Origin: Alkanindiges illinoisensis DSM 15370
GTDB lineage: Bacteria > Pseudomonadota > Gammaproteobacteria > Pseudomonadales > Moraxellaceae
Assembly: GCF_000619845.1 (NCBI RefSeq)
Contig: NZ_JHUX01000003.1
Location: 240,001 to 272,000 of the forward strand
Length of the DNA stretch: 32,000 nt
Reading direction: 5' to 3'
The notes under the pieces are model-generated. The model saw only the letters and a program-made list of their open reading frames with translations. It ran no database searches and was not told where the DNA came from. A program made the translations under genes and the position numbers. Every line of letters begins with the position of its first letter. Position 1 is the stretch's first letter. Below, one piece after another: positions 5,707-30,776 of the stretch.

Positions 5707-5747
5707 GTTTGTGCTAGATTTCCTCATGATTATAAAAGGATCAAATT

Positions 5748-6527: not shown

Positions 6528-6556
6528 AAAGTTTTATAACTGTTTTAATTAAATTA

Positions 6557-6578
6557 AACCACCTCCGGGTGGTTTTTT
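6557..6578 (+). terminator. Intrinsic terminator after the moron
   Basis: AACCACC-tccg-GGTGGTT followed by a T run. Confidence 0.7.
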
Positions 6579-6592
6579 ATTGGGTGTAGGAA

Positions 6593-10351: not shown

Positions 10352-10353
10352 TC

Positions 10354-11001: not shown

Positions 11002-11855
11002 GAGCAGCTTCAGCTAAATTGATCCAGCTGCTGGATGCCAACCAGTTTGTTATGGCCGACCTTTACACATTGACCACTATTTTGGGGAAGGTGTACCGGT
11101 TTACCAATTATGATCTGGATCTGACAGTGGCTGGCCAGCTGTACCGTGCTGATGGTCCTATCATCAGCCGTGACGGCATCAAGCAAACCACGGGCATTGA
11201 GGTTAGTAGCCTAAACATTGAGATTAAGGTCAATGATACGGTGCTTCTGGATGGCGTGCCATTTATTCAGTTACTGCATAACGGTGGCCTTGATGGAGCG
11301 CGGTTTAAGCTAGAGCGTATTTTCATGGACTGGCAGACACCAACTGATACCAGCGCTGGCACTATTAAGCTGTTTGAGGGTAGGCTGGTTGAGCCAGAGT
11401 TTCACCGCACCGGTGCCAGCTTTGAAGTGGCGTCCGATACGGAAGTTCTCAATGTGCAGATGCCACGTAACCTGTACCAGCCTGGCTGTTTAAATACCCT
11501 GTTTGATTCAGGCTGCGGTTTGGTCAGAGCCGCGTATGCTGAGCTGGCCACTGTGGAAATCAATACCGTGGCCAACCGTATTCAATGTAGCCTTAATCAT
11601 GCCCAGGGTTATTTTACCCAGGGTGTGGTCGAGTTTTTATCCGGAATAAATACTGGGGTAAAACGCACGATTCGCCTGCATGAGTCCGGCGCGCTGCATC
11701 TCACCTTGCCATTGCACCAGTTGCCGGCCGTGGGTGACCAGATCCGGGTTTATCCAGGCTGTGACAAGCGCATGGATACGTGCACCAACCGTTTTAATAA
11801 CCTGTCAAATTTCCGGGGCTTTCCCTTTGTCCCGGTTCCTGAAACCGCTGTTTAA
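10998..11855 (+). CDS. Tail tip protein (lambda gpL-like; DUF2163 plus BR0599 C-terminal domain, RcGTA g13-like)
   Basis: ATGA overlap with the upstream gene. The C-terminus PGCDKRMDTCTNRFNNLSNFRGFPFVP matches the BR0599 motif (C-D-K-x4-C-x3-F-x-N-x2-NF-x-GFP) as remembered. A second Cys pair is PGCLNTLFDSGCG. Confidence 0.65.
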   Translation: MRAASAKLIQLLDANQFVMADLYTLTTILGKVYRFTNYDLDLTVAGQLYRADGPIISRDGIKQTTGIEVSSLNIEIKVNDTVLLDGVPFIQLLHNGGLDGARFKLERIFMDWQTPTDTSAGTIKLFEGRLVEPEFHRTGASFEVASDTEVLNVQMPRNLYQPGCLNTLFDSGCGLVRAAYAELATVEINTVANRIQCSLNHAQGYFTQGVVEFLSGINTGVKRTIRLHESGALHLTLPLHQLPAVGDQIRVYPGCDKRMDTCTNRFNNLSNFRGFPFVPVPETAV

Positions 11856-11875
11856 CTCAATTAATTTTCTTTTAT

Positions 11876-11899
11876 ACCCGGCCAGTGTGCCGGGTTTTT
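11876..11899 (+). terminator. Intrinsic terminator upstream of the fibre gene
   Basis: ACCCGGC-cagtgt-GCCGGGT followed by T5. Confidence 0.65.
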
Positions 11900-11912
11900 C
11901 ATTGTTGGAGAG

Positions 11913-14900
11913 ATGACAATGGCTGATTTACCTGTTGCAGATGACCTTATTGCACCTAGTATTACTGAAGGTCAGTTTAAAGCGGCACTAAAGATATTAG
12001 TAGAAAACGTTGTTAGCAAAGATTATGTAAATAACAACGCTTTATTTAAACCGGTAGCCATTTCAAGTGGCCAATATACGCATATCGACCAGTTTAAAAC
12101 AGCAGGCTATTACTTTGTACGTTCGACAGCCATTGCTACGGCCATTGTTGGACTACCAGAAAGCCGGCCGTGCATCATTGAAGTGATTGCTAACACAAAT
12201 AGTGCTAACACAAATATAGTATCGCAGATCATTAGACCGCTCGGTGCTGCTTATTATTATTTTAGATCAACACTAAGCACGGGCGAATTTGCTGCTACAT
12301 TTGAGAAAGTTATTGGACAAGCCGCGATTGCGACGCTAATTAGCACTGCAAGCGATGCTGCCAAAGCTGCTGCAACTGCTGAAGCAAAAACCTACAGCGA
12401 CACAAAACTTGACGCAAAGCAAGTGATTTATGCGTACAGTGATGGCAATATGATCGGCGCAAAAACACTACGCTACCCAAATTTTGGCTTGCGCGGTGAT
12501 TATACGATTGCAGATAGTACCGTTTATGATGCCGTTATTGTACCAGTGCAGGCAGGCGATACGCTATACATTCACAACGATCAGTCACGTTACACTGGCT
12601 CAACTGGATCGAACTATGCGTTTTTTGCGCAAAACCCGTTTTTAAACAGGGCGCAAACCGCGCTTGCAACATCCGGTGCTGACAGCAGTACAACGGATAG
12701 CACTAGCGCAATTATATATAAAAAGGCGATTGCACCCGCTGATGCCCGTTATTTAATCGTAAATGAGCGTTTTACCGCAAATGCGGGTGGTACAACAAAC
12801 TATAACTGGGCGGTGCATAAAGACGCATTCAATCCGGCATATACACAAGGCAATGCCTATGTTGCTGAGATAGACGGCATCAAGTTTAAGGATACGTCTG
12901 TAAAATTATCAAAAGAAAACAACCCTACTGTGTCAGCAAAAAACATCTACACAGGTGATGTCAACGTTAAAGCACGGGTAAACGACAACGGTGTGTATAT
13001 CAGTGCCAATGCCAATGACATTTTATCGCCATTTATTCCGGTTGAATTTGGCAAGACCTACACCATTAGCGGCATACCCCGCGACATGATGGCAACAACG
13101 GCAACCCGCATCATGGGTGTTGCCAGCAACACAGTGCCGAGCACAGACTTTGTCAAAGTTTTAACGACAACTACTGACACTACTGTCACTGTTACAATTA
13201 ATGACGTGCAGATTAAATATATTGTATTCCCACTGGCTGCTAACAATCTGGGTGTGCTGGAAAAAGCACAATTTGCGCCAGTGCAGATTGAGGTCGGCAG
13301 CGTAGCCACTGCCTATCAACCCTCCGAATATACAATAGCACTCCAGCGCGTCATTAATAAATTTAGCACTAGCGCAAACAGCAGCGGGGCGTTGAAAGAT
13401 GCAGGCATAAAAGTTGTATCGCAATTTATTGACTTAAACATGGTACGCGAGCCACAAATGAGTACTGTGTCACCGATTATCAAAGGTGTCGGCCCGCGCG
13501 GTGCAAGTTATGGCGTTAAAGGTACGGCGGCGACAGATAGTGCGAGCAATAATATCTATGCCCAGTTTGATGTGCTTAGCGACAGCAACAAAGCGGTTAA
13601 TGTCAATGTTATAAAATACGTCAATGGCGAGAGGGCTGCTGGCGTGCTGCATCCGCGTGCATTTAGCGTACCATCCGGGGCATTAGATAACCCGGACAGC
13701 TTTGCTTACGCTGACAAATATCCCAAAGATTTATCAACGCACCCAGTGATTGCTTATACCGCAACGCCCATCGCAGGATTTAATTACTGGATGATTTCGT
13801 CTACTTTTCCGCCCACCTCGGAATCCGGTGTAAAGTGGGAAGATGAAGATATGTTTGTCAGTAATGATGCGGTGACGTGGCAGCGTATCCGCTCAGTCTA
13901 TGAAACTGACAAGTCATACACGACAGCAACACTGCGCTTGCCGCCGCAAACGCTGGTTACCAACAACTCGCGCAAGCATTGTTTTTTACCATCCCCTGCC
14001 GTTGGTGATGTGTTTGAAGTAAGCGTACCTGCGAGCAATGGCGCACCAGCACTTGACCGCCAAACCATGACACTGAGTACACGCTTGCCGTGGAAGCATG
14101 ACCCGTACTTGCTCATTGACGATGGGTACATCTACACATACCACTCTTTTAACCTGTTTTTTAACGAGCGCAATGACGAAAAGAGTCACTTTTTTGTCTG
14201 CGTCCGCACTAATAATGGGATTGATTGGGATGTCGTGCGCACTGACGGTAGCACCATGCGATTAACCGAAGCCACAAGCCGTCAGCTCTTCACCAAAGAC
14301 GATCAAGGTCGTTATAACTATATGAATTATGCGTATAACGATGATCGCCAGAACCCTGAAATTGTTAAATACGGAACAGGTGATTATGAGCTGGTATGGG
14401 GCAGGAACTTTACAGTGCGTTATAAAGGCACAACGCCGTATGCGTTTGATTTTTCTACTGCGTATCCGTTTAAGGATACCAGCTCGACAAACCATCCGAC
14501 CTTGTTATTTAAAGACAATATTTTATATGTCATTACAAACAAGGCGGTGTATCAAAGTACAGACCGTGGCGCGACATTGACGGTGTTGCCAAAATACCCA
14601 ATGTGGCTGGGTGGTGTGCAGGGCTTTGGCTATAAAAAAAGCTGCTGTATCGGCGCTGGTGACAAATTTATTGTTGCAGATACCCAGCGCATTAATGCAC
14701 CCGCTTTTACATCAGGCGCGGTCAACGCAGTTAATGACATCAATCAAGTGTTTTTCTATGAGTATCCGAGTTTTACTGATTTTTTAACTAAAGCAAACAC
14801 GGGTTTAATTGATGCGTACATAGATTTGCAAGTGACTAAAGTAAATCTAAATACAAATAGCCGCCAGGTCTTAAATATACCCTGCATTAGCCCAACTGCG

Positions 14901-15044
14901 TCTAGCGCAACAGGGATTGCTGCACTGTACCGCTTGAAAGTGGCTGACTTAGAGCTAAAAGCAGGCGACACGGTATATTTTCACGTTACGCTAAATTCAA
15001 GATCAGGCGCTGAAATTGTATTTGGCGGTATTGATTTGACTTGA
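11913..15044 (+). CDS. Tail fibre / tailspike (probable receptor-binding protein, possible glycan-degrading C-terminal beta-propeller)
   Basis: The 1043-aa ORF has GGAGAG directly abutting ATG 11913, so ATG 11919 (MADLPV) is the more likely start. Residues ~55-135 are knob-like. A short AKAAATAEAK helix follows. Three Asp-box-like motifs (SNDAVTW aa 650, TNNGIDW aa 766, STDRGATL aa 882) lie exactly 116 residues apart. The DNA is AT-richer than its neighbours. Confidence 0.65.
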   Translation: MTMADLPVADDLIAPSITEGQFKAALKILVENVVSKDYVNNNALFKPVAISSGQYTHIDQFKTAGYYFVRSTAIATAIVGLPESRPCIIEVIANTNSANTNIVSQIIRPLGAAYYYFRSTLSTGEFAATFEKVIGQAAIATLISTASDAAKAAATAEAKTYSDTKLDAKQVIYAYSDGNMIGAKTLRYPNFGLRGDYTIADSTVYDAVIVPVQAGDTLYIHNDQSRYTGSTGSNYAFFAQNPFLNRAQTALATSGADSSTTDSTSAIIYKKAIAPADARYLIVNERFTANAGGTTNYNWAVHKDAFNPAYTQGNAYVAEIDGIKFKDTSVKLSKENNPTVSAKNIYTGDVNVKARVNDNGVYISANANDILSPFIPVEFGKTYTISGIPRDMMATTATRIMGVASNTVPSTDFVKVLTTTTDTTVTVTINDVQIKYIVFPLAANNLGVLEKAQFAPVQIEVGSVATAYQPSEYTIALQRVINKFSTSANSSGALKDAGIKVVSQFIDLNMVREPQMSTVSPIIKGVGPRGASYGVKGTAATDSASNNIYAQFDVLSDSNKAVNVNVIKYVNGERAAGVLHPRAFSVPSGALDNPDSFAYADKYPKDLSTHPVIAYTATPIAGFNYWMISSTFPPTSESGVKWEDEDMFVSNDAVTWQRIRSVYETDKSYTTATLRLPPQTLVTNNSRKHCFLPSPAVGDVFEVSVPASNGAPALDRQTMTLSTRLPWKHDPYLLIDDGYIYTYHSFNLFFNERNDEKSHFFVCVRTNNGIDWDVVRTDGSTMRLTEATSRQLFTKDDQGRYNYMNYAYNDDRQNPEIVKYGTGDYELVWGRNFTVRYKGTTPYAFDFSTAYPFKDTSSTNHPTLLFKDNILYVITNKAVYQSTDRGATLTVLPKYPMWLGGVQGFGYKKSCCIGAGDKFIVADTQRINAPAFTSGAVNAVNDINQVFFYEYPSFTDFLTKANTGLIDAYIDLQVTKVNLNTNSRQVLNIPCISPTASSATGIAALYRLKVADLELKAGDTVYFHVTLNSRSGAEIVFGGIDLT

Positions 15045-15087
15045 TAATCATATTAATCCGCACTTATTTAATTAAATAAGGAAAACC

Positions 15088-15510
15088 ATGAAAACTGATT
15101 TAATTATTACTGAAGCCAGATCCTGGCTCGGGACGCCTTACCATCATCAAGGGCGGATTAAGGGCGTAGGGGTGGACTGTGGCATGCTGCTCTGTGAGGT
15201 TTATCATGCAGCAGGCCTTATTCCCTTTGTTGATCCTCGGCCATATCCCCCGGACTGGTATATGCACCAGATGGACAATAAATACTTGGACTGGGTGAAA
15301 CAATATGCCGAGCCAGTAGCTACACCAAAACAGGGCGATATCGCCCTGTTTCATTTTGGAAAATCGATTAGCCATGCGGCCATTGTGGTGGCATGGCCAA
15401 CCATTATCCATGCCTATCATGGCCAGGGCTGCATATTGGGTGATGCGACCAAGGGCAGGCTGTGCAGTAATTTAGCCGGTTTTTGGCGTATCCGGGAGAA
15501 TCAGGGATGA
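15088..15510 (+). CDS. NlpC/P60-family tail-tip cell-wall peptidase (lambda gpK-like / RcGTA g14-like)
   Basis: W-L-G-T-P-Y followed by the catalytic GVDCGMLL (Cys). Downstream are ISHAAIV and IIHAY (His residues). Size (140 aa) and position before the J-like gene fit. Confidence 0.8.
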   Translation: MKTDLIITEARSWLGTPYHHQGRIKGVGVDCGMLLCEVYHAAGLIPFVDPRPYPPDWYMHQMDNKYLDWVKQYAEPVATPKQGDIALFHFGKSISHAAIVVAWPTIIHAYHGQGCILGDATKGRLCSNLAGFWRIRENQG

Positions 15511-17984
15511 GCGGCGGTACAATAAGAATATCGGCAGAAAAATCCAATAGCTTGCGCGTACAGACCTCAGCCTATGGCTTATGCCTGCCACTGATTTATG
15601 GCCGGCAGCGGGTTGCCGCTAATATGTTCTGGTATAGCGATTTTAATGCCATTGCTCATACCACCACCAGTAAATCCGGGGGCTTTTTAGGTATGGGTAA
15701 AACCAAGACTAAAAACACCACCTACACTTATCAGGCAGCACTGATGCTAGGACTTGGGGAGTCCATCACCTCAGTAGACACCATCTGGATTGACAAGGAT
15801 CAGGTCACAGCCAAGCAAAATGGTGGCGCAACAGAAACGGCACTGGCCCAGCGTGGCCTTGAACTGTTTACTGGCCAGAATAACAGTGTCTGGGGTTATT
15901 TAACTTCCCGGCATCCGGATCAGGCTTTAACGTATCCAAGGCTTGCCTATATTTGCTCTGGCGCGTATGACCTGGGCGAAAGTGCTACATTGGCCAACCA
16001 TGGGTTTGAAGTCACCGGCAAGTACTCCATTTCCAGCACTGTGCTAGACGCTAACCCGGCTGATGTGATTTATGACTATATCAAAAATCCCAATTATGGT
16101 GCGGCGCCTGATTTAAACTTGGCTAGCTTAAGTCAGTTCAGAACGTATTGTGCTGCTGCCAACCTGTTGGTGAGCCCTGCATTTACTGAACAGCGCTCTG
16201 CCTATGAAGCGATTAACGACCTGGTGGAATCGGTTAATTGTGCCGTGGTGGCCAGCGCTGATGGCTTAAAAATCATTCCGTATGGCGATGCACCACTCAC
16301 TGGCAACGGTTATACCTATACACCGAATTTAACCCCGGTGTATCACTTAACTGATGATGACTTCCTGGATCAGGAGGAACCGGTCAGGGTCAAGCGTAGC
16401 CGGGATTCTGATGCCTATAACCATTGCCAGATTGAATACGTCAACCGGCACAACCAGTACAATACGGAAATCGTAGAGGCTAAGGACCAGGCCAATATTG
16501 AAATGTACGGCCTGCGCACTGAAGATCCGGTCAAGCTGAACCACTTTTGTGAGCCAGTGATTGCCCGCCATGCTGTCCAGCTGCGCATGCAGCGTAAACT
16601 GCATATCCGGAATATTTATGAGTTTGAGCTGGGCTGGAAGTACTGCCGGCTGGAACCTATGGATATTGTCACCCTGACAGATTCATCCTTAGGCTTAAAC
16701 CAGTTTCCAGTGCGTATTAAGGACATTGACGAAGATGATGACGGCCAGCTGACAATCACCGCTGAAGAACTGGTGATCGGTGTTGGGAGTGCCATTAACT
16801 ATGACCTGCAATCGTCCAACGGTTATCAGGGCGGCAATGAAGATCCGGGGCCTGTATTTGCACCAGTAATTTTTGAGCCACCGCTGGAATTAACCGATGG
16901 CAACAATGAAGTGTGGGTGGCTGTTGCCGGTGGACCAAACTGGGGTGGCTGTCAGGTTTGGGTGAGTTACGACAATCAGAGCTTCAGTCAAGCAGGGGCT
17001 GTTTACGGTGCGGCACGCTATGGCCAGCTTATTGGCAGTATCGATGCAGACGATACAGCATTATATGTTGAGCTGAACACCAGCCTGCAAATTTACTCAT
17101 CCAGCACCGTGGCAGTGGAAGCCGATGTAAGCCTGGTGCTTGTTGGTAATGAATACCTGTCTTATCTGAATTCCACGTTAACTGGCCAGCAAACCTACCA
17201 GCTGACGGATCTGGAGCGCGGCCGCTTCAATGATGCCCAGGCACATACGGACAATACCCGTGTGGTGGTGTTAGATAGTGCCATCTTCAATGCGACAGTG
17301 AATAAAAACCTGATCGGTAAAACCATCTATTTAAAATTTACCAGTTTTAACAGTCTGGAGCGCAAGCACGAGCAGCTGGCCGATGTGGCTGCTTATTCTT
17401 ACACCCTGGTTGGCGGTGCACCGGGTGGGCCAGCAGGCCTGTCATTGGTTGCACCTTTTAATGGCAATAGCTTTACGGTGCAGTGGTCATTTGTCAGTGG
17501 TGCGAGCAGCTACGTGGTGCAGATCCTGTCAGATGGGGTGGTGCGGCGTGAAGTGGAAGTGACATCCACCAGCTACAGTTATGGTTATCAGGATGCTGCT
17601 ACTGATGGTGGCCCATGGCGTGCTTTTACGGTACGAGTGGCCAGCCGGTCAAATGGCAGTGTTTCGGCCTTTGCTGAGCTGAATGTCAGTAATCCTGTGC
17701 CGGCAGCAGTCGTTAATGTGATTGCTGTTCCTGGAACAAATAGCATCAGTGTGTCATGGGATAATAGCAGTGCACCAGACCTGAAGGACTATCAGGTCTG
17801 GCTATCAACAACCAGTGGTTTTGATCCTGCCACAATGGCTGCCTCATGGACTGGAAACAGTACTAACCATACCTTTACGGGTCTGGCTAGTGGTGCCACC
17901 TATTACATTCGGGTTGCGGCGCGGGATGTTTGGGGCGCTGGTGCACTAAATTATTCAGGACAGGTTAGCCAAGCGGCTGGCTAA
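15507..17984 (+). CDS. Host-specificity / central tail tip protein (lambda gpJ-like, RcGTA g15-like) with two C-terminal fibronectin type III domains
   Basis: Start set at ATG 15507 (ATGA overlap with the peptidase stop) rather than the TTG at 15483. N-terminal MSGGTIRISAEKSNSLRVQTSAYGLCLPLIYG is the typical start of J-like tail proteins. The C-terminus carries FN3 signatures (SFTVQWSFVSGASSYVVQI; SISVSWDNSSAPDLKDYQVWLS...GATYYIRVAARD). Confidence 0.8.
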   Translation: MSGGTIRISAEKSNSLRVQTSAYGLCLPLIYGRQRVAANMFWYSDFNAIAHTTTSKSGGFLGMGKTKTKNTTYTYQAALMLGLGESITSVDTIWIDKDQVTAKQNGGATETALAQRGLELFTGQNNSVWGYLTSRHPDQALTYPRLAYICSGAYDLGESATLANHGFEVTGKYSISSTVLDANPADVIYDYIKNPNYGAAPDLNLASLSQFRTYCAAANLLVSPAFTEQRSAYEAINDLVESVNCAVVASADGLKIIPYGDAPLTGNGYTYTPNLTPVYHLTDDDFLDQEEPVRVKRSRDSDAYNHCQIEYVNRHNQYNTEIVEAKDQANIEMYGLRTEDPVKLNHFCEPVIARHAVQLRMQRKLHIRNIYEFELGWKYCRLEPMDIVTLTDSSLGLNQFPVRIKDIDEDDDGQLTITAEELVIGVGSAINYDLQSSNGYQGGNEDPGPVFAPVIFEPPLELTDGNNEVWVAVAGGPNWGGCQVWVSYDNQSFSQAGAVYGAARYGQLIGSIDADDTALYVELNTSLQIYSSSTVAVEADVSLVLVGNEYLSYLNSTLTGQQTYQLTDLERGRFNDAQAHTDNTRVVVLDSAIFNATVNKNLIGKTIYLKFTSFNSLERKHEQLADVAAYSYTLVGGAPGGPAGLSLVAPFNGNSFTVQWSFVSGASSYVVQILSDGVVRREVEVTSTSYSYGYQDAATDGGPWRAFTVRVASRSNGSVSAFAELNVSNPVPAAVVNVIAVPGTNSISVSWDNSSAPDLKDYQVWLSTTSGFDPATMAASWTGNSTNHTFTGLASGATYYIRVAARDVWGAGALNYSGQVSQAAG

Positions 17985-18000
17985 AACAATTTTATTTTTC

Positions 18001-18024
18001 AAAGCTCCTAATCGGGAGCTTTTT
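18001..18024 (+). terminator. Intrinsic terminator after the J-like gene
   Basis: AAAGCTCC-(6 nt)-GGAGCTTT running into T5. Confidence 0.65.
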
Positions 18025-18049
18025 GCATTTTGAATGGAAGGGAAATCTT

Positions 18050-18430
18050 ATGTCTGAACCAGTTTCGACGTATGGGGCAGGGGCATTGCTCAAGGCTTAT
18101 GGCGCTGGCCTGATCATTGGCTTGTTTATTGTGTTGGGTTATCTGGTTGTGATTATGACTCGGATGCCACGCACACGGCCAGAGTGGGCTGTTGGGCTGA
18201 TTGCAACAGTGGTATCCAGTTTAGCTGGCGGCTCATTTTTGGTGATTAAGTACCAGCTTCATTCCTGGGGTAATGATTATTACGGCATGGTCGCTTTAGG
18301 CGGCTTTTATTTTGCCTGCGGATTGCCGGGCTGGGCGCTGATCCGCTGGATATTCAATTTTATCAACCAGCGCGAGGGCGCCACGATTATTGATGTTGTC
18401 CGTGAAGTGAAGGACGAGATCCAAAAATAA
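18050..18430 (+). CDS. Holin (class I-like, three predicted transmembrane segments)
   Basis: Start moved to ATG 18050 because the ORF-track TTG at 18023 lies inside the terminator; an AGGGA SD-like element lies upstream of 18050. Hydrophobic segments are GLIIGLFIVLGYLVVIM, WAVGLIATVVSSLAGGSFLVI and MVALGGFYFACGLPGWALIRWIF. It has a charged C-terminal tail and sits directly upstream of the endolysin. Confidence 0.6.
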   Translation: MSEPVSTYGAGALLKAYGAGLIIGLFIVLGYLVVIMTRMPRTRPEWAVGLIATVVSSLAGGSFLVIKYQLHSWGNDYYGMVALGGFYFACGLPGWALIRWIFNFINQREGATIIDVVREVKDEIQK

Positions 18431-18497: not shown

Positions 18498-19262
18498 ATG
18501 CTACTGAAGAAAGGTAATACTGGGTCAGCTGTCAAACGATTGCAAACTGCACTGGCCAAGCAAGGGTTATATATTTATTTGGTAGATGGTGACTTTGGCC
18601 AAAAGACTGAAGATGCACTAAAAGCGTACCAGCAAAAATTCAATGTCAAACCTGATGGCATTTTAGGTGACTATATTGCCGGCAAGCTCGGCCTGGTATT
18701 ATCTGTGCCAGCTGGTGCACCAGCAAACACTAAACCGGTTATTGTGCTCACTGCTGGCCATAGTCTGGTAGATCCGGGCGCGTGTAATGGAAAATTCACT
18801 GAAGCCGGGATTGTGCGGGAAGTGCGTAACGGCGTAACGGCCATATTGAACAGTCGAGGCTACAAAGTCATTAATGATGGCACTGGAAACGACAACCAGG
18901 CTTTAAGCAAAGCTGCTGCACTAGTCAAACAGGGTAAAATCGCTATCGAGTTTCACTTGAATGCTGCAACCAGTAAAGCGGCCACCGGTGTTGAAGCATT
19001 AGCTCAATCGAAAGATAAAGCGATCTGTCAAAAACTGTGTAGTGCGCTCTCAAGCGTGCTTGATATTCCTGTACGCGGTGGCAATGGTGGCTGGAAGGAT
19101 GAAGGCAGTGGCCAGCACAGCAAACTTGCCTACGTCAGTGCCGGAGGCATCATTCTTGAGCTATTTTTCATCAGCAACGATGCAGAGCTGCAAAAATACT
19201 TCGACCGCAAGGATCAAGTGTTTACGGCCATTGCTGATGTACTGAGTGAAAATTTAACATGA
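18498..19262 (+). CDS. Modular endolysin: N-terminal peptidoglycan-binding domain (PG_binding_1) plus N-acetylmuramoyl-L-alanine amidase (Amidase_3)
   Basis: The PGB motif is GNTGSAVKRLQTALAKQG...DGDFGQKTEDALKAYQQKFNVKPDGILG. The amidase motifs are LTAGHSLVDPGA, IEFHLNAATSKAATGVEA and IILELFFISND. Confidence 0.85.
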   Translation: MLLKKGNTGSAVKRLQTALAKQGLYIYLVDGDFGQKTEDALKAYQQKFNVKPDGILGDYIAGKLGLVLSVPAGAPANTKPVIVLTAGHSLVDPGACNGKFTEAGIVREVRNGVTAILNSRGYKVINDGTGNDNQALSKAAALVKQGKIAIEFHLNAATSKAATGVEALAQSKDKAICQKLCSALSSVLDIPVRGGNGGWKDEGSGQHSKLAYVSAGGIILELFFISNDAELQKYFDRKDQVFTAIADVLSENLT

Positions 19263-19268
19263 GAGCAT

Positions 19269-19296
19269 AAAAAAGCCCGAATTAATCGGGCTTTTT
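19269..19296. terminator. Bidirectional intrinsic terminator shared by the endolysin (+) and the 19300-20073 ORF (-)
   Basis: A6-GCCCGA-attaa-TCGGGC-T5. The A and T runs flank the stem so it can act on both strands. Confidence 0.8.
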
Positions 19297-19299: not shown

Positions 19300-20073
19300 T
19301 CATGCACGAGTTATTTTACGATTAAACATTTCAGATAAGGCAGCATCTAAAGCATCTTCCTGCTCTTCTGTGCGATCTGCATAAATTTCAATACAAGGGG
19401 CCATAGGGGATAACTTAGCTTGCACGAGTGCCTGACGAATTTCTTTAATCTCAGCAACATCGTTAGCAGATAAAGTACTATGAGTATCAATCGCAGTAAT
19501 TGAAAAAGAAGATTCTTTTCCTAATTCTTTGTTCATAACAAACCCCTTAACAGCCATAGCATGGCTAACATCATCTATCGTCATCTCAGTTGTTGCTTCT
19601 GGTAAATTGTGACTACTTGTGGCAATTTCGTAAAAATGAACATGGCTTCCAGTATGTACATCACGATGTGAAGCTGAATGAACAGCTTTTTTAGCACATT
19701 TATTAACTTCCCAGCATGTGATTGCAGGTAAGGTTCCTGAGCCTGTGATTGAAAGTATATCTTTATGGAAAATTCTTTGATTCTCGTGATAAAAATGCTT
19801 ACCGTTTTCTAAATCAATAATGCAAATAGCCATAGAATGAGCAGAAGGTCTAGGAGTACTATAATCTCCTTTTAACCAATCTTTCCATTTTTGAATAGCT
19901 GTTCCAGAGCCTGCAAAAAGAAAGCCAAATGCGTGCTGTTCAACATCTTTAATCACGAGTTTTGGGTAATTGACCTCGTCAATATATACCATCCACTTAG
20001 AAGGTGCCAGCGTTGACCATCGAGTATCTGCTGCTATAATTCCATTTAAACCGTCAAATACATTTGTTGTCAC
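19300..20073 (-). CDS. Orphan HslV / proteasome-beta-like (Ntn-hydrolase, Thr-protease) domain protein with a ~100-aa C-terminal extension of unknown family
   Basis: GTG start gives M-T-T-N-V, with an AGAGAG SD-like element 6 nt upstream. By-eye alignment to HslV/20S beta signature positions:
- MTTNVFDGLNGIIAADTRWS (Thr1, Asp17 equivalent).
- PKLVIKD...FLFAGSGTA (Lys33 / Gly47 region).
- SITGSGTLPA (Ser129 GSG).
- HRDVHTGSHVHFYEI (Asp166/Ser169 region).
The DNA is AT-rich and the gene is on the opposite strand to all neighbours. The family call needs a profile or structure search. Confidence 0.55.
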   Translation of the reverse strand: MTTNVFDGLNGIIAADTRWSTLAPSKWMVYIDEVNYPKLVIKDVEQHAFGFLFAGSGTAIQKWKDWLKGDYSTPRPSAHSMAICIIDLENGKHFYHENQRIFHKDILSITGSGTLPAITCWEVNKCAKKAVHSASHRDVHTGSHVHFYEIATSSHNLPEATTEMTIDDVSHAMAVKGFVMNKELGKESSFSITAIDTHSTLSANDVAEIKEIRQALVQAKLSPMAPCIEIYADRTEEQEDALDAALSEMFNRKITRA

Positions 20074-20392
20074 TAAATACTCTCTATTATTTTCATTAAA
20101 ATAAGTATGAAAAAATTGACGCGAATCCTACACAATAAAGTTCAAAAAAACAACGCTATTTTTTAGTGGAATTCGGCCTTACATTTTTTAAATTATTAAT
20201 AATTATTTTAAAAATTGTCCAGTCCATTTATCGGATCTATCCATGAATTTTAAAGATATCCTTTTATACTTACTAATACCGATATTCTGAATAGGCATTT
20301 TTCAAAATTTAATCATATTGCAGTATAAGTAAAACCTTATGTTTTACGACTTCCTACTTTATATAAAAAATCAGAGCGCAGGTTTCTTTGTC

Positions 20393-20401
20393 TGCTATAA
20401 T
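20393..20401 (+). promoter_or_regulatory. Candidate extended -10 promoter element (TGcTATAAT) for lepA
   Basis: TGCTATAAT was read at 20393-20401, about 90 nt upstream of the lepA ATG. No good -35 is present, which is compatible with extended -10 promoters. This is sequence inspection only. Confidence 0.35.
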
Positions 20402-20491
20402 CGCGCATCTTTAATTATTGCCTGCATTCAATCGAATGCCGCAAAAATATTCTATGTACAAAGTGCTGTACATATTGCTGAGTTTTATTGA

Positions 20492-22312
20492 ATGTCAAGT
20501 AACGTAACTCGTTGTAAAATAGAGAATATTAGAAACTTCTCGATTATTGCTCATATTGACCACGGCAAGTCCACGCTGGCTGACCGTTTTATTCAGCGTT
20601 GTGGCGGCTTGCAGGATCGTGAAATGCAGGCGCAGGTTCTAGATTCCATGGATCTGGAGCGTGAGCGTGGTATTACCATTAAGGCTCACTCAGTAACGCT
20701 CTACTATAATCATCCCAACGGGGAGCGTTACCAGCTCAATTTTATTGATACGCCGGGTCATGTTGATTTTTCCTATGAAGTGTCTCGCTCGCTGGCGGCC
20801 TGCGAAGGGGCTTTGCTGGTCGTTGATGCTGCACAAGGTGTGGAGGCGCAATCCGTTGCAAACTGTTATACCGCAATTGATCAGGGACTTGAAGTTTTAC
20901 CTGTCCTGAACAAGATTGACTTGCCACAGGTTGAGCCAGAACGTGTCATCAAGGAAATTGAGGAAATCATTGGTATTGAAGCTGAAGATGCGCCGCGTGT
21001 TTCTGCGAAATCAGGCTTGGGCATTGATGAACTGCTGGCCACGCTGGTAGATCGTATTCCTGCGCCAACCGGAGATCGTGATGCACCGCTACAGGCCTTG
21101 ATCATTGATTCCTGGTTTGACAATTATCTGGGTGTCGTGTCTTTGGTTCGGGTACGTCATGGCCGTATCAAAAAAGGCGATAAAATGCTGGTGAAGTCAA
21201 CCGGCATGAGCCATCTGGTAACTTCTGTGGGCGTATTTAACCCCAAGCATCAAGAAACTGGTTTGCTAGAGGCTGGTGAAGTTGGCTTTGTGATTGCGGG
21301 CATTAAGGACATTTTTGGCGCACCAGTAGGTGATACCATTACCCTGCACAGTACCCCTGATGTAGAGATATTACCCGGTTTTAAACAGGTTAAGCCACAG
21401 GTTTATGCGGGTTTATTCCCCATTGATTCCAGTGATTTCGAGGCGTTTCGCGAAGCATTGCAAAAGCTACAAATTAATGACGCCGCGCTATTTTTTGAGC
21501 CGGAAAGCTCGGATGCACTGGGCTTTGGTTTTCGCTGTGGTTTTCTGGGTATGTTGCACATGGAAATTGTGCAGGAGCGCTTGGAGCGGGAATACGATCT
21601 TGATCTGATTACATCGGCGCCGACTGTAATTTATGAAGCCGTTAAGAAAAATGGCGACACCGTTTATATTGATAACCCGTCCAAAATGCCGGATGGCGGT
21701 ACTGTTGAAGATTTGCGTGAGCCGATTGCCGAGTGTCATATTTTAGTTCCTCAGGAGTATCTGGGTAACGTGATGACCTTGTGCATTGAGCGCCGTGGTA
21801 TTCAAAAAGATCTTAAGTTTCTGGGCAATCAGGTTGCTGTAACTTTTGAAATCCCCATGGGTGAAGTGGTGATGGATTTCTTTGACCGTTTAAAATCAGT
21901 ATCCCGTGGTTTTGCCTCGCTGGATTATAATTTTGTCCGTTTTGAAAGCTCGAGTCTGGTTAAGGTTGATGTGCTGATTAACGGTGAAAAAGTCGATGCA
22001 CTGGCCATGATTTGCCATCGTAATGATGCGCGTTATCGGGGCAATGCACTGGTTGAAAAAATGAAAGACCTGATTCCGCGTCAGATGTTTGATGTCGCCA
22101 TTCAGGCAGCGATTGGTGGTCAGATCATTGCACGCTCTACGGTTAAGGCCATGCGTAAAAACGTTCTGGCCAAATGCTATGGCGGTGACGTATCGCGTAA
22201 GAAAAAACTGCTGTCCAAGCAAAAAGAAGGTAAAAAACGCATGAAGCAGGTGGGGAGTGTTGAAATTCCTCAAGAAGCGTTCTTGGCGGTGTTACAGGTT
22301 GATAAAAAATAA
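20492..22312 (+). CDS. lepA: Elongation factor 4 (LepA), translational GTPase
   Basis: [76 protein letters not shown] and the C-terminal LepA-specific domain are present. Synteny with lepB fits. Confidence 0.97.
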
Positions 22313-22411
22313 GACTGCAAATAAGCGTGAGGAGCACTGCTCCGCAAGGCTTTGCGCAGTCGCAAAACAGGCAGTTAGGCTGCAAGTGAAATTGCTGAAG
22401 AGGAACGCGCT

Positions 22412-23230
22412 GTGGATTTTGATTTTAATTTGATTTTGGTACCAGCAACGCTGATCTTTTTTATGATCTGGCTACTGGATAAATTAATCTGGAAGCAACG
22501 CGCAACTCGCGGCCGCGATGGCGAAAATATTATAATTGGCTGGGCTTATGATTTCTGGCCTGTGCTGGCGCTGGTGCTAGTAATTCGTTCCTTTGTGGTT
22601 GAACCATTCAATATTCCGTCTGAATCCATGGTACCTACCTTGCAGACTGGTGATTTTATTCTGGTCAACAAGTATAGCTATGGTGTGCGTCTGCCAATTA
22701 GTAATACCAAGTTTTTGCAGACTGGTGAACCCCAGCGTGGCGAGGTCGTGGTGTTCCGTTATCCCTTGCAGCCCACTGTAAACTATATCAAGCGGGTGGT
22801 GGGCTTGCCGGGCGACCATATTGTCTATGACCGTGGCACATTAAGCATCAATGGTAAGCTGATTTTCAAGAAAGCCTTGGCAGATCAGGGAAATCCTGAA
22901 TATGAGCGGTTTTATCAGGAAACGCTGGGTACGCATGCCCATACCATTCGTGAGTTGAATGGTGCTAACTCTGCTTCTATCGCACCGTTTATTAACAGTC
23001 AGGCCAATGAAGGTGGCAAATATGCCGCAACCAACGGCCAGCACTGGGAAGTTAAGGTGCCGCAGGGTCATTATTTTATGATGGGTGACAACCGTGACCA
23101 GAGTGCGGATAGTCGTTTCTGGGGCTTTGTGCCGGAACAAAACCTGTCAGGTCGTGCTTTTTATGTATGGATGCATAAAGAACCGGGTTTCCATATTCCA
23201 AGTTTTGCCAGAAATGGTAGGATTAATTAG
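22412..23230 (+). CDS. lepB: Signal peptidase I (S26 family)
   Basis: GTG start with a GAAGAGGA SD. The catalytic box is PSESMVPTLQTGDFILVNK. Also present are YIKRVVGLPGD and GDNRDQSADSRFWGFVP. Confidence 0.95.
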   Translation: MDFDFNLILVPATLIFFMIWLLDKLIWKQRATRGRDGENIIIGWAYDFWPVLALVLVIRSFVVEPFNIPSESMVPTLQTGDFILVNKYSYGVRLPISNTKFLQTGEPQRGEVVVFRYPLQPTVNYIKRVVGLPGDHIVYDRGTLSINGKLIFKKALADQGNPEYERFYQETLGTHAHTIRELNGANSASIAPFINSQANEGGKYAATNGQHWEVKVPQGHYFMMGDNRDQSADSRFWGFVPEQNLSGRAFYVWMHKEPGFHIPSFARNGRIN

Positions 23231-23267
23231 GTAAAGCAGGGACTGGATCATTAAAAGGAATAATATC

Positions 23268-23654
23268 ATGATCAATATGAAAGCGCAGCGTGGTGCCTCT
23301 TACTGGGGCATTATGATAGGAATAATGCTGGGAGTAATAGTAATCAAGGCAGCACTGATTACCTGGCCGGCGTACTGGGACAACCGTCTGATTAATGCCT
23401 CAATTGAAGAAAAGTTAAGAAGTTCAACCAGCAGTGATCCGGCCAAGTTTGTACAGGATCTAGAACAGCAATTTAGCCTGAATAATTTACGTGATGTCCA
23501 AGCCAAAGACATTATGAAAGTCAGCAACAGCGGTGGTGAACTGGTGGTACAACTGGATTATGAAGTCCGCAAAAATTTTATGGGCAATGTTGATTTGGTC
23601 ATGTCATTTGAAAAGCAGTTTGACCAGCGTGCCATTAAGGCAGGTGCCAAATAG
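23268..23654 (+). CDS. DUF4845-like small membrane-anchored protein
   Basis: A single N-terminal transmembrane helix (YWGIMIGIMLGVIVIKAALITW). It occupies the conserved lepB-rnc intergenic slot occupied by DUF4845 proteins in other gammaproteobacteria (from memory of Pseudomonas synteny). Confidence 0.6.
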   Translation: MINMKAQRGASYWGIMIGIMLGVIVIKAALITWPAYWDNRLINASIEEKLRSSTSSDPAKFVQDLEQQFSLNNLRDVQAKDIMKVSNSGGELVVQLDYEVRKNFMGNVDLVMSFEKQFDQRAIKAGAK

Positions 23655-23702
23655 CAGCATGATCGTAACAGGTAAAAATGAATAGGCAGGTGAAACATCA
23701 AT

Positions 23703-24386
23703 TTGGTTAATCAACAGCGCTTACTGAGCCGACTGGGCTATCAGTTTAATGATCAGGGTTTGTTCAGACAGGCGCTCACGCATCGTTCAGTCAGCCAGCG
23801 TCACAATTATGAGCGTCTGGAATTTCTCGGTGATGCGCTGCTGGGCGTGATTATTGCGCAATACTTGTATCACCGTTTTCCTGAGGAACAGGAAGGGCGA
23901 TTAACCCGTATGCGTGCTACACTGGTCCGTCAGGAGTCACTGGCCTGTATTGCCCGTGATCTCAAACTGGGTGAATCACTGATTTTAAGCACGGGTGAGA
24001 TGAAAAGCGGTGGACACCATCGTGAGTCCATTCTGGCCGATACAGTGGAAGCCCTGATTGGTGCCATTTTTCTGGACTGTAGTGATCTGGAACAAATCCG
24101 GCCGCTGGTGCTTAAGTGGTATGAACCTTATCTGGCTGACCTGATGCCAACCGATGCACTGAAAGATCCCAAAACCCGCTTGCAGGAATATTTACAGGGG
24201 CGGCACCTGCCATTGCCGGAATACAAACTGGTTGAGGTGCGTGGTGAAGCGCCCAACCAGCATTTTACCATTCACTGTCAAGTGACCAATGTTCCTGTTG
24301 CCGTAGGTGAAGGAGCAAGCCGTCGTAATGCTGAGCAAACTGCTGCCAGTGTCATTTTAAAGCAATTGGAGCAGGCATCATCATGA
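23703..24386 (+). CDS. rnc: Ribonuclease III
   Basis: RNase III signature [12 protein letters not shown], plus the [14 protein letters not shown] motif and a C-terminal dsRBD. A TTG start is inferred (AGGTGA 9 nt upstream) and is uncertain by a few codons. Confidence 0.95.
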
Positions 24387-25486
24387 CCACGCAACCCAAC
24401 AATATTCATTCAAATTCTGAAATGCAAAATCCTGAAAAGGATGATTCTCAGGCTAACGCGATAACGACAAGTGACAGCAGCAATAGTGACAATGCAGACC
24501 ATGCTAGTCCGCAGGATGTCATTGGTCAGTTCTTTAAAGATAGCCCTGCCGAGATTCCGGCAGACTTCCGTTGTGGCTTTGTGGCAATTGTTGGCCGTCC
24601 TAATGTGGGCAAATCGACATTGATGAACCACCTGATTGGCCAGAAGCTCTCGATCACGTCGCGCAAGCCACAAACCACCCGTCATAAAATTGTGGGTATT
24701 GATACCCGCGATAACGTACAGGCTGTCTATGTTGATACACCGGGCATGCATAAAAAAGAAGTGCGCGCCATCAACAAAATGATGAACCGTGCGGCTTCAT
24801 CTGCCTTGCGTGATGTGAATCTGGTGCTGTTCGTGGTGGATAGCATGAAATGGGTGCCAGATGATGAGTTGGTGCTGGAAAAGCTCAAGAATGCTGATAT
24901 GCCAGTTATTATGGTGATCAATAAGGTAGATACCATTGAAGAAAAACGCACCTTGCTACCGTTAATAGAGCAGCATGGCAAACGAATGAAGTTTAGCGAT
25001 ATTGTGCCAGTTTCTGCCTTGCGCGGTGCCAATCTTGAGCATTTGCATGAGGTGATTGCCAAATATCTGCCTTTTGCACCACCGATGTATGCTATTGACC
25101 AGTTAACGGATCGTTCAGAGCGCTTTTTGGCCAGTGAAATTGTGCGTGAAAAAATCATGCGTCAACTGGGTGAAGAGTTGCCTTATGATCTGGCGGTGCA
25201 AATTGAATCCTTTAAGGAAGAACCCGCCACGATTAATGAAAAAACTGGCAAACCCAAGCCAGCCTGTTTATATATTGATGCCACAATATTGGTGGAACGT
25301 CAGGGCCAGAAACTGATTGTGATTGGTGACAAAGGCCGCAAGCTTAAACAAATTGGTATGGAAGCCCGTATCGACATGGAAAAAATGTTTGAGCAAAAAG
25401 TCATGCTCACCTTATGGGTGAAGGTCAAAGGTGGCTGGTCGGATGATGAGCGTGCATTAAAAAGCTTGGGCTATAGTGATATCTGA
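24383..25486 (+). CDS. era: GTPase Era (with ~55-aa low-complexity N-terminal extension)
   Basis: ATGA overlap with rnc. Motifs are [27 protein letters not shown] and NKVD, plus a C-terminal KH domain. Confidence 0.95.
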
Positions 25487-25546
25487 GCGGATTAATGCAC
25501 AAGGGTTACCAGTAGCTTAGTCAGATTTAGTAGGCGGGATGTGATA

Positions 25547-25729
25547 ATGAAGTTGATAAATGTATTGACCCTATTAACGCTGGCGCTTGGCCTGCAAGCC
25601 TGCCTGGGTACCAAGGTGGTCACCGTACCAGTAAAAGTGGCGTATGGCACCACCAAGGCCGTGGTTAAGGGCACTGGTGCCGTGGTTGGTGCTGCCATTC
25701 CTGATGATGACGATGAGCAGAAAGAATAA
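25547..25729 (+). CDS. Small lipoprotein, unknown function
   Basis: Lipobox LGLQAC after a hydrophobic N-terminus (MKLINVLTLLTLALGLQAC). It has an acidic tail DDDDEQKE. ATG 25547 is preferred over GTG 25541 on SD spacing. Confidence 0.55.
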   Translation: MKLINVLTLLTLALGLQACLGTKVVTVPVKVAYGTTKAVVKGTGAVVGAAIPDDDDEQKE

Positions 25730-25786
25730 GGGCTAGCATGCTGGGCAAGCCAGTGACAAAAATAAAAAGCACTATCATGCGGTTTT

Positions 25787-26533
25787 GTGCTGCAATGCTC
25801 AGGTGTTTATAGTTATGGAATTATAAAAGTGCGCCAGCAGCTCTTGCATGGGTTTATGCTTCACCAGCGTGCTTATCGTGAAAACAGTAAACTGGTTCAT
25901 TTTTTTTCGCTGGAATTTGGCCGAATTGATGGCGTGGTTCGTGGGGCGCAAGTTCCGCTGTACCAGCCTGTTCTGTTATATGCATCTGGTAAGTCTGCCT
26001 TAAAAAGCTTGAGTAAAATTGAATGGGTCGGTGCCCCTAAAAACTTGCAGGGTTCAGCCCTGTTTGCCGGTTTCTATGCCAACGAATTGCTGGTTAGGCT
26101 AGCACCACTGGAAGAAGCCTTGCCCAACGCTTTTGGCGCCTATAGTCAGTTACTGGATGAACTGCAAAACTTGCCTATACCGGATGACGGCAATCTGGCG
26201 CTAATGACCGCATTACGGCGATTTGAGTCGGTACTGCTGGCTGAGCTGGGCTATGCAATTAACTTCGCACAGGATTTTTTAGGCATTGCCATTCAGCCGC
26301 AACAACTATATCGCTTTACGCCGAATGAAGGCTTTAGTCCCAACAATTCAGGTGAATTGGGTGAATACATACTGGCCATGGCTGATCCGGAATTTGCATT
26401 TACCCAGAAAGTATTGCCTGCTGAAGTGATTGCCATGTTAAGCCGGGTTTATCGCAAGGCATTGGCCGTATTATTGAACGATAAGCCTCTAAAAAGCAGG
26501 GAACTGTGGATTGCACAGCAGTCGGGCACTTAA
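25787..26533 (+). CDS. recO: DNA repair protein RecO
   Basis: era-recO-pdxJ synteny and the N-terminal RecO-like LHGFMLHQRAYRENS motif. The true start is probably GTG 25829 (or ATG 25856) rather than 25787. Confidence 0.8.
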   Translation: MLQCSGVYSYGIIKVRQQLLHGFMLHQRAYRENSKLVHFFSLEFGRIDGVVRGAQVPLYQPVLLYASGKSALKSLSKIEWVGAPKNLQGSALFAGFYANELLVRLAPLEEALPNAFGAYSQLLDELQNLPIPDDGNLALMTALRRFESVLLAELGYAINFAQDFLGIAIQPQQLYRFTPNEGFSPNNSGELGEYILAMADPEFAFTQKVLPAEVIAMLSRVYRKALAVLLNDKPLKSRELWIAQQSGT

Positions 26534-26623
26534 ATAGCAGCAGTAAAATCAGCTGAAATCCTGTTTATATCTGAAAGTTTTTAGTGCTAAAACTCATATT
26601 TCTTAATAAAGGTGGCAAAGCCA

Positions 26624-27346
26624 ATGAGCATTTTACTGGGTGTTAATATTGATCATGTCGCCACGTTGAGAAAGGCGCGGGGAACCATTTATCCTGATCC
26701 GGTCAAAGCAGCCTTGCTGTGTGAGGAAGCCGGTGCCGATGGAATTACCCTGCATTTGCGCGAAGACCGCCGTCATATTCAGGATAATGATGTAGTTCGG
26801 ATGCGTCCATTGCTTAAAACCCGCATGAATCTGGAAATTGCCGTGACTGATTTTATGCTGGATTTTGCCTGTCAGATCCGGCCACAGCATGTGTGTCTGG
26901 TACCTGAAAAGCGTGAAGAACTGACTACCGAAGGTGGACTTGATGTCGCCGGGCAAATCCAGAAAATCAAGGCAGCAACCCGTAAACTCACGCAGGCAGG
27001 TTGTGAGGTTTCATTGTTTATTGACCCGGAACCTCGACAAATTGATGCGGCAATTGAGTGCGGTGCGCCCACCATTGAACTGCATACCGGGGCTTATGCC
27101 GAAGCGGCGGGCACTGAGCTGGCATATGAGCTACAGCGCATTACCGATGCAGTAAACTATGCGGCCTCGCGCTTGATTGTAAATGCCGGGCATGGCCTGA
27201 ATTTGCACAATGTAGCAGCCATTGCGCGCCTGCCGCATATTCATGAGTTAAACATCGGTCATGCCATTATTGCGGACAGTGTTTTTGTGGGCTTGCGTCA
27301 GGCAGTGCAGGATATGAAACAGGCCATTGCACAGGCCACGCAGTAG
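26624..27346 (+). CDS. pdxJ: Pyridoxine 5'-phosphate synthase
   Basis: [20 protein letters not shown] and HLREDRRHI motifs. ATG 26624 (AAGGTGG SD upstream) is preferred over the ORF-track GTG 26612. Confidence 0.95.
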
Positions 27347-27370
27347 GCGATTTCTTATTCATTTTTTGCA

Positions 27371-28009
27371 GTGTTAATGTGTTTCCTTATGAGTTCTACT
27401 GACGTCTTATTACAACCTGTTCAGGCTTTTTTAGGCTGTGCGACACCGGAAAGCTGGCTGCAAGAAGCCTGCCTGCCTGCCAATATTCCGCTAATTATTC
27501 AGGATCATGCCAATTGTGAAAAAAAGGCGGCCAGCACGGCCATTAACCTCATGTTTCGCTATGGTTTTTATACGGACCTGCAGGTGAAGCTATCGCAACT
27601 GGTACGTGAGGAAATGCTGCATTACGAGCAGGTGCTCGACATCATGCAAAAACGCGGGCAGGCGTGGCAGGCCATTCCGGCAGGACGTTATGCGGGTGGT
27701 TTGCGCAAGGAAATTAAAACCTATGAACCACAGGCGCTGGTTGATGTGCTCATTGTGGGGGCATTTGTGGAAGCACGTTCCTGTGAACGTTTTGCTGCAC
27801 TAGCATCCTATGTGGATGATGAACTGGCAAGATTTTATAAATATTTGCTGAAGTCTGAATCACGCCACTTTGAGGATTATCTGAATCTGGCACAATCCAT
27901 CAGCAAGGAAGATATCACCGCTCGGGTAGAAACCTTTCGTCAGCTTGAAGCCGAGCTGATTAGCACATCGGATACCGAGCTACGTTTTCATAGCGGTATC
28001 CCAGCCTGA
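27371..28009 (+). CDS. miaE: tRNA-(ms2io6A)-hydroxylase MiaE (non-heme di-iron)
   Basis: DHANCEKKAASTAINLMFRY plus the EExH-type motifs (VREEMLHYEQV, ESRHFEDY) are characteristic of MiaE. The start is uncertain (GTG 27371 or ATG 27389). Confidence 0.8.
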   Translation: MLMCFLMSSTDVLLQPVQAFLGCATPESWLQEACLPANIPLIIQDHANCEKKAASTAINLMFRYGFYTDLQVKLSQLVREEMLHYEQVLDIMQKRGQAWQAIPAGRYAGGLRKEIKTYEPQALVDVLIVGAFVEARSCERFAALASYVDDELARFYKYLLKSESRHFEDYLNLAQSISKEDITARVETFRQLEAELISTSDTELRFHSGIPA

Positions 28010-28023
28010 TATAAATAGACCGC

Positions 28024-30698: not shown

Positions 30699-30720
30699 AA
30701 CTAAACCATTCGGCCTGTAA

Positions 30721-30753
30721 AAAGTCCCCCATACTGGAGGACATTTATTTTTA
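30721..30753. terminator. Possible bidirectional terminator between convergent mcrC and the L,D-transpeptidase gene
   Basis: A4-GTCCCC-catact-GG(A)GGAC, a 6-bp stem with one bulge, followed by ATTTATTTTT. Confidence 0.4.
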
Positions 30754-30776
30754 CTAAAACTCAATCAAAGCACGGG

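Follow-up and report, generated by a model that had tools for sequence, protein, structure and literature searches.

A survey of the proteasome-like superfamily described 22 new proteasome homologues and placed the families PPH, RPC and DPH among its group I (Fuchs, Alva, and Lupas 2021; PMC8665760). PPH proteins are about 140 residues long, occur in phages and their hosts, and were called 'the first true viral member', RPC and DPH are found in Proteobacteria only, PPH and RPC are without helix H2, and a propeptide is present in none of them (PMC8665760). RPC, whose C-terminal domain matches no known structure, was rare in 2021 (79 sequences at nr90) and experimentally uncharacterised, and the superfamily also includes the monomeric ligase connectase (PMC8665760). 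Here we describe a gene of this kind in a stretch of 32,000 nucleotides from Alkanindiges illinoisensis DSM 15370 (contig NZ_JHUX01000003.1, positions 240,001 to 272,000 of the forward strand), which is referred to below as the window. Judged from profile comparisons and a structural model, its product is a proteasome-fold N-terminal nucleophile (Ntn) hydrolase, best filed as a member of the class published as RPC on the strength of descriptive features and not of a sequence comparison with the RPC representative WP_140207863. The genes found around it and around its homologues indicate that it is prophage or island cargo without a conserved partner. The RPC-type architecture was already known, having been catalogued by computer in 2021; what is added here is the setting as a prophage accessory ('moron') gene, the recurrence of the same slot behind lysis cassettes, and the mapping of the right attachment site (attR) within lepA.

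19300 to 20073, minus strand: hydrolase gene, 257 amino acids (aa), start codon GTG and not ATG; proteasome-like Ntn (Thr1) hydrolase, RPC type by features

An earlier note on this stretch, made by eye from the letters, had described the same open reading frame (ORF) on the minus strand, and the frame is as it was drawn there. RefSeq holds the identical 257 residues as WP_156935674.1, a 'hypothetical protein' of Alkanindiges illinoisensis, and the NCBI copies of family members all bear that name. A word-indexed search returned 18 relatives, and an exhaustive profile search returned 573 clusters at 50% identity with E ≤ 1e-3, including 176 with E ≤ 1e-30. These clusters are nearly all 235–260 aa long and were matched over their full length, so that the C-terminal extension belongs to the family throughout. 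The earlier note had called this extension novel, a description that has to be given up: the two-part architecture is present full-length in at least 573 clusters, and it fits RPC. A degenerate DNA pattern for MTTNV[FYC]D-x8-D-x-R-W, run over the 185,579 species genomes of GTDB, added 17 loci in beta- or gammaproteobacteria only, and the 16 that could be checked are full-length homologues with 27–36% identity. A pattern scan of IMG/VR gave no confirmed relative, and a megablast search of phages with the 10 kb around the gene gave no match.

Conservation was counted over 163 homologues, no two of which share more than about 50% identity. The threonine that directly follows the initiator residue was proposed in the earlier note as the nucleophile, and this Thr2 is kept in 148 of 149 homologues. 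The Asp, Lys, Gly, GSG and Asp-x-x-Ser motifs that were picked out by eye are likewise the conserved ones: Asp16 is found in 154 of 155, Lys38 and Gly55 in every homologue counted (161/161 and 162/162), Gly111-Ser/Thr112-Gly113, Asp138 and Ser/Thr141 in all 163, and Gly142 in 160 of the 163. Thr3 is also invariant or nearly so, and the same holds for a set of family-specific residues, namely Arg18-Trp19, Asp32, Trp63-Lys64, Ala117, Asn156, Gly177 and Ala225-Pro226. The N-terminus reads Met/Val/Leu-Thr-Thr in 141 of 162 homologues, the remainder being truncated or having an upstream, mis-called start with an internal xTTN. Such strict conservation of the catalytic residues over at least 163 diverged full-length sequences implies that selection has been purifying.

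Several entries in public databases begin at a downstream start and so lack the Met-Thr-Thr, among them a 230-aa MetaClust version of the window protein and 217–218-aa NCBI calls from Paraburkholderia and from a metagenome-assembled genome (MAG) of Pseudomonadota; in these entries the catalytic threonine is therefore hidden from automated annotation.

At the level of sequence, the fold is reached by way of profiles and of phage proteins. The PHROGs profile phrog_1040, annotated 'peptidase HslV family', matches the protein with E 3e-13 and aligns residues 1–171 with profile positions 14–179 of 277, a partial match that does not reach the full length of the profile. When the 163-sequence profile was compared by hhalign with gp5 of Aeromonas phage phiA009 (291 aa), residues 1–158 aligned with residues 1–163 (probability 96.6%, E 6e-10), MTT fell on MTT, and D, K, G, GSG and D-x-x-SGG were matched too; phiA009 gp5 itself matches the HslV of T. 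maritima (E 4e-4) and proteasome beta5 (E 3e-3). A HMMER search of the PDB with the family profile matched beta5 weakly (E 0.017), and the alignment is in register, with FAG on residues 45–47/Gly47 and the Asp138 region on 'RDAYSGG', the Asp166-x-x-Ser169-Gly170 strand. A direct phmmer search of the PDB with the protein returned noise only.

The protein had also been lined up directly with E. coli HslV in the earlier note, and this alignment is statistically undetectable: against both the 16- and the 163-sequence profiles, the E. coli sequence (checked against PDB 5ji3) gave an hhalign probability of about 1%, which is not significant. Membership in HslV, and the label 'HslV-like' with it, was dropped for that reason. 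The tie to HslV is structural, and transitive via the phage proteins.

An AlphaFold2 model of the full-length protein, built on 19 homologues, is confident throughout, with a predicted local distance difference test (pLDDT) score of 89 and a predicted template-modelling (pTM) score of 0.87. A Foldseek search of the PDB with this model agrees with the proteasome/Ntn fold that had been read from the motifs: there are 57 matches at E ≤ 1e-3, the best of them a proteasome beta5 subunit (E 5e-5, probability 1.0), and among the 50 matches listed are proteasome beta subunits, mostly beta5, together with lower-ranked Anbu. In BFVD the matches are phage proteins labelled proteasome subunit beta, Ntn hydrolase or HslV, and also unnamed phage proteins, 131–279 aa.

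The core takes up about residues 1–160 and the C-terminal extension about residues 160–257. When the C-terminal part (aa 150–257) was modelled alone it reached a pLDDT of 65 and a pTM of 0.28, against a pLDDT of about 90 for the same part in the full-length model. The extension has no sequence match in the PDB, and its stand-alone model, itself poor, has no Foldseek match (best E 6.9). On the modelling evidence the extension is an integral layer of the fold and not an autonomous domain, and disorder is not to be inferred from it. Where H1 and H2 would be, the model has a single helix (aa 57–68) between strand 47–56 and strand 81–87, and it shows no connectase-type helical insertion between S3 and S4.

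The gene stands at the right end of a prophage, and the features around it are as follows.

1 to 18430, plus strand: prophage late region, with tape measure, tail assembly, J-like tail protein and a holin-like gene
18498 to 19262, plus strand: prophage endolysin (PG_binding_1 + Amidase_3), final late gene, transcribed towards the hydrolase gene
19269 to 19296, both strands: bidirectional intrinsic-terminator hairpin, GCCCGA-loop-TCGGGC with A and T runs, common to the endolysin and hydrolase genes
20074 to 20491, no strand: AT-rich spacer of 418 bp, phage DNA, containing the hydrolase promoter region
20080 to 20085, minus strand: Shine-Dalgarno-like AGAGAG, 7 nt 5' of the GTG and kept in the locus of the closest homologue
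20125 to 20153, minus strand: candidate hydrolase promoter (TTGTTT, 17 nt, TAGGAT), which lies in an upstream block also conserved at the locus of the 73%-identical homologue
20492 to 20559, plus strand: phage-supplied new lepA 5' end and attR crossover region, with the core at about 20525–20559

Terminase and portal genes lie just upstream of the window start. From lepA onward the window is 85% identical to, and collinear with, the lepA-lepB-DUF4845-rnc-era-recO-pdxJ genes of a relative. In this related Alkanindiges genome (L022) a thioesterase gene stands about 100 bp before lepA, with no prophage and no hydrolase gene there, and the synteny of the window with it begins at 20534, inside lepA. 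A contig with the phage attachment site in its unintegrated (attP) form (L024 5599–5670) matches window 20492–20563, and in a three-way alignment the window keeps to the phage sequence as far as about 20525–20559, beyond which it follows the host relative. This crossover puts attR within the first ~70 nt of lepA, whose new start in the window is brought by the prophage. By this mapping the hydrolase gene and the AT-rich spacer are both phage DNA, and the right arm ends with the hydrolase gene. At 73% identity the homologue P0002 is the closest; it is found on overlapping metagenome contigs that carry, in this order, a CI-like repressor, an integrase, a copy of the lepA 5' end (54–72 bp), a small ORF, the hydrolase gene and a convergent lysozyme gene, which is an attP configuration. 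The earlier picture of opposite-strand, self-terminated cargo at a prophage end thus finds support in the attR mapping and in the use of the same slot by other phages.

Since the prophage replaces the start of lepA, the lepA-lepB-rnc-era operon must now be driven from phage DNA, and by inference the spacer also carries the signals that now drive lepA. LepA is 606 aa long in the window, as against 600 aa in the prophage-free relative.

The signals around the gene agree with what had been read from the sequence by eye. The AT-richness is measurable, with a guanine-plus-cytosine (GC) content of 0.376 in the hydrolase ORF and 0.278 in the spacer versus 0.472 in both the phage part (1–19262) and the host part (20492–32000). 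The bidirectional terminator that had been placed after the endolysin lies between the endolysin stop (19262) and the hydrolase stop (19300) and gives a strong fold on either strand (-22 and -18.6 kcal/mol; z -6.4 and -5.5); a simple consensus terminator scan did not pick it up. The 418-bp spacer before lepA, described in the earlier note as free of ORFs, has no minus-strand ORF of 40 aa or more and just one mechanical 50-aa ORF on the plus strand. The hydrolase gene is monocistronic, because no minus-strand ORF precedes it in the spacer. No tRNA, Rfam or repeat feature accounts for the spacer sequence, which also has no similarity to the region upstream of lepA in the relative. Nucleotide similarity to the P0002 locus (75.5%) continues past the gene as far as window 20165 and reappears at 20198–20257; the 90–190 bp upstream of the gene are about 75–80% conserved with that locus and have sigma70-like candidates within them. 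Besides the candidate listed above, there are others at 20086–20113 and 20192–20221. The hydrolase gene is probably driven by its own promoter, for which these are candidate sites only.

A near-consensus sigma70 promoter (TTGACC, 16 nt, TATAAT, with TG; 11/12) was also seen at 20013–20040 on the plus strand. It falls within the 5' part of the hydrolase coding sequence, faces lepA, and is antisense to the 5' end of the hydrolase mRNA; its -10 element is probably not conserved in the 73%-identical homologue, which has Val-Val instead of Ile-Ile codons there.

The homologues elsewhere stand in mobile settings of several kinds. One is convergent behind a holin and a GH108 endolysin gene, one adjoins an O-acyltransferase (Acyl_transf_3) moron and a glucosaminidase gene, one lies in an integrase-bearing element near smpB, and one in a phage early region (a replication/recombination module) with a TIR gene; a Pseudomonas homologue belongs to an integrase/AlpA/resolvase island adjoining a type I restriction-modification (R-M) system, and one further locus is near MzaA. 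Ubiquitin-like conjugation genes stand beside the proteasome homologue in 2 of the ~22 loci: in a Ca. Methylopumilus MAG (L021 1719–5322) the homologue is convergent, across a 70-nt gap, with an operon of Multi_ubiq+Prok-E2_E, Prok-JAB+ThiF(E1) and DUF6527 genes, and in a Moraxellaceae MAG (L007 244–4106) a homologous E1-like gene lies 1.5 kb from the hydrolase copy.

No fixed companion emerged from these loci. The window has no HslU-like, alpha-subunit-like or Anbu-type (ATP-grasp, transglutaminase-like, peptidase) neighbour, as had been noted at the outset, no HslU gene was found among the neighbours in the ~22 homologue loci, and no Anbu operon partner was found among the neighbours examined. 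By Pfam and PHROG counts no neighbour family occurs in more than 3 of 121 neighbour ORFs, and an all-against-all BLAST of 239 neighbour ORFs linked only mobile-element backbone genes, recombinases and repressors. The statement of the earlier note that no single-gene system of this kind is known does not hold, the protein fitting the catalogued class RPC (PMC8665760).

Two observations on these loci stand by themselves. The homologue P0005 (L034 131–904), directly behind a holin and a GH108 endolysin gene, appears to be split into ORFs of 87 and 156 aa, probably by a frameshift; this copy, which occupies the same slot, may be in decay. Homologue-carrying Pseudomonas elements also contain a 277-aa protein without a Pfam match (L026 8864–9697; L001 14186–15019), which adjoins the integrase or the homologue and is probably part of the island backbone; BLAST linked only redundant copies of it (L026, L016 and L028).

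Elsewhere in the prophage, a second low-GC island (5748–6527, plus strand, GC 0.323) between the tail genes and the tape measure consists of a 259-aa ORF that matches phrog_11231, of unknown function, and has a C-terminus that resembles IalB at a sub-threshold score; this may be a further moron. A 1043-aa prophage protein encoded at 11913–15044 (plus strand), between the genes for tail assembly and for the J-like tail protein, has no PHROG or Pfam match.

There is reason to think, on balance, that the gene is a monocistronic moron at the right prophage end in lepA, and that its RPC-class Ntn hydrolase is expressed in the lysogen as a conflict protease. Removal of the initiator methionine by methionine aminopeptidase is established for a penultimate threonine. 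In the window protein the same enzyme would remove Met1 and expose the threonine both as nucleophile and as base-bearing amine. By analogy with proteasome and HslV chemistry, Lys38 and Asp16 would form the proton relay and Gly55 the oxyanion hole, and Ser/Thr112, Asp138 and Thr141 would orient Thr1 as they do in a proteasome beta subunit, so that peptide bonds could be cleaved without a propeptide, autoprocessing or an unfoldase. The model and the literature together suggest that the absence of H2 and the extra C-terminal layer would probably alter or abolish ring assembly of the HslV/20S type and may take the place of an external regulator or substrate-selection module. The terminator would shield the hydrolase gene from late transcription, and its own candidate promoter would allow expression in the lysogen. 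The weakest step is the last, in which a specific protease would act in phage–host or phage–phage conflict, for example in superinfection exclusion or defence.

A bolder form of this proposal can be put forward, which we regard as rather unlikely in its entirety. RPC-type proteins may be self-sufficient, ATPase-independent threonine proteases that serve temperate phages and islands as single-gene immunity or counter-immunity effectors, with the C-terminal layer and its terminal elements, a conserved amphipathic helix and an aromatic residue, acting in cis as an activator or substrate gate in the way that the tails of HslU or 19S act in trans. As the gene stands beside ubiquitin-like E1/E2/JAB operons in two loci, such enzymes might perhaps act on or against ubiquitin-like conjugates.

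Several observations weigh against a proteasome-type conflict protease encoded by a prophage moron. In the proteasome family, active sites usually become competent only once the subunits have assembled into rings. Pfam gave no match, its Proteasome model PF00227 included, although a profile match of this sort had been named in the earlier note as support; the HslV and beta-subunit models of NCBIfam were not reached either, the best being arc_protsome_B at 16 bits versus a cutoff of 224, and the template-modelling scores of the Foldseek matches are modest (0.37–0.49). The suggested PADLOC check was also negative, with 0 families of PADLOC-DB 2.0 at E ≤ 10 for the window protein. No family member was found by tblastn of the window protein and the homologue P0015 against 50,697 sequenced phage genomes, nor by a search of 72,556 plasmids with the window protein. 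The placement in RPC is one of features, the literature search found no follow-up on the function of RPC or PPH, and HslV-like relatives in the early region of a lytic Aeromonas phage point to a role that benefits the phage rather than to defence.

This last point leads to the main rival, in which the same enzyme serves the phage during infection or induction, cleaving an immune or regulatory protein of the host for the sake of counter-defence or host takeover. We consider such a role doubtful but quite conceivable. Outside the family, the closest relatives that can be detected belong to lytic phages, such as gene 5 of phiA009, which is among the first genes of its record; Ntn/HslV-like phage proteins are found in BFVD, one homologue lies in a phage replication/recombination module, and PPH has been presented as a truly viral member of the superfamily (PMC8665760). 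However, the gene stands apart from both the early and the late operons here and in at least three other phages; its place in the window, on the opposite strand behind a terminator and next to the attachment site, is the usual one for morons that are expressed in lysogeny, and the Pseudomonas copies are in non-phage integrative islands that adjoin R-M genes. These positions favour the lysogen-expressed moron over a phage-serving enzyme.

It is also possible, though improbable, that the threonine chemistry is retained and the enzyme is no protease, being instead a ligase or transpeptidase, as connectase is, or an amidase on a non-protein substrate. The membership of monomeric connectase in the superfamily allows for this, a canonical degradation chamber would seem to be absent, given that H2 is lost and a C-terminal layer added, and the family-specific invariants Arg18-Trp19, Asp32, Trp63-Lys64, Asn156 and Ala225-Pro226 point to a dedicated substrate site. 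Yet the full proteasome set is retained, down to the equivalents of Ser129, Asp166 and Ser169, the best structural matches are catalytically active beta5 subunits, and the connectase-type S3/S4 insertion is not seen in the model. That the gene should be a host housekeeping protease of the HslV type, or a decaying, functionless remnant, is very improbable indeed and already contradicted by the data: although P0005 is apparently split and several database entries are truncated at the N-terminus, the related Alkanindiges genome has neither the gene nor a prophage at lepA, there is no HslU and no significant similarity to HslV, and the catalytic residues are held strictly across the diverged full-length homologues. 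A moron-encoded conflict protease thus remains the explanation that we favour.

The ATPase-less proteasome homologues (Anbu, BPH, PPH, RPC and others) make up a long list of enzymes without a known job. The present locus gives RPC a clear biological setting, insulated by a terminator and proximal to the attachment site, with the same slot used in unrelated phages and with further copies in islands close to defence genes. An entry in a sequence-cluster table is in this way turned into a testable hypothesis, and the gene offers a good experimental entry point to an orphan enzyme class. Should it prove to affect phage infection, a viral proteasome-like protein would for the first time have a function.

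Set beside the known proteasome homologues, the window protein shares with HslV (ClpQ; peptidase family T1B) a threonine right after the initiator methionine that needs no autoprocessing, the same types of catalytic residues and the same fold class; it differs in having no significant sequence similarity to HslV, no hslU neighbour, about 80–100 further C-terminal residues, no H2 and a location on mobile elements. The 20S proteasome beta5 subunit (T1A) is its best structural match, with FAG/Gly47 and Asp166-x-x-Ser169-Gly in register, whereas identity is about 15%, template-modelling scores are modest, and the window protein has neither propeptide nor alpha subunit. Anbu, BPH and connectase resemble it in that their action is known or presumed to need no AAA+ unfoldase, and Anbu is among the Foldseek matches; unlike them, the window gene has no Anbu operon partners and its product no connectase S3/S4 insertion, and phyletic range and extensions differ. 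PPH and the phrog_1040 proteins come closer, being phage-borne, HslU-less Thr1 hydrolases with homologous N-terminal cores and a Met-Thr-Thr start, but PPH is only ~140 aa long versus 257 aa, and the phrog_1040 proteins, at ~275–290 aa, have C-terminal halves that do not align (phiA009 gp5 compared). With RPC the likeness extends to the Thr1/Asp/Lys proteasome-like core, the lack of a propeptide and of H2, the unmatched C-terminal region and the restriction to Proteobacteria. The RPC representative WP_140207863 (KEGG OC.1493145) is absent from the accessions of the 26 family clusters that were looked up, and two differences from RPC as published can be named: the extension of the window protein is, in the model, an integral layer of the fold and not a separate domain, and RPC is listed as proteobacterial, with no phage mark (PMC8665760), whereas the gene described here is demonstrably the cargo of prophages or islands.

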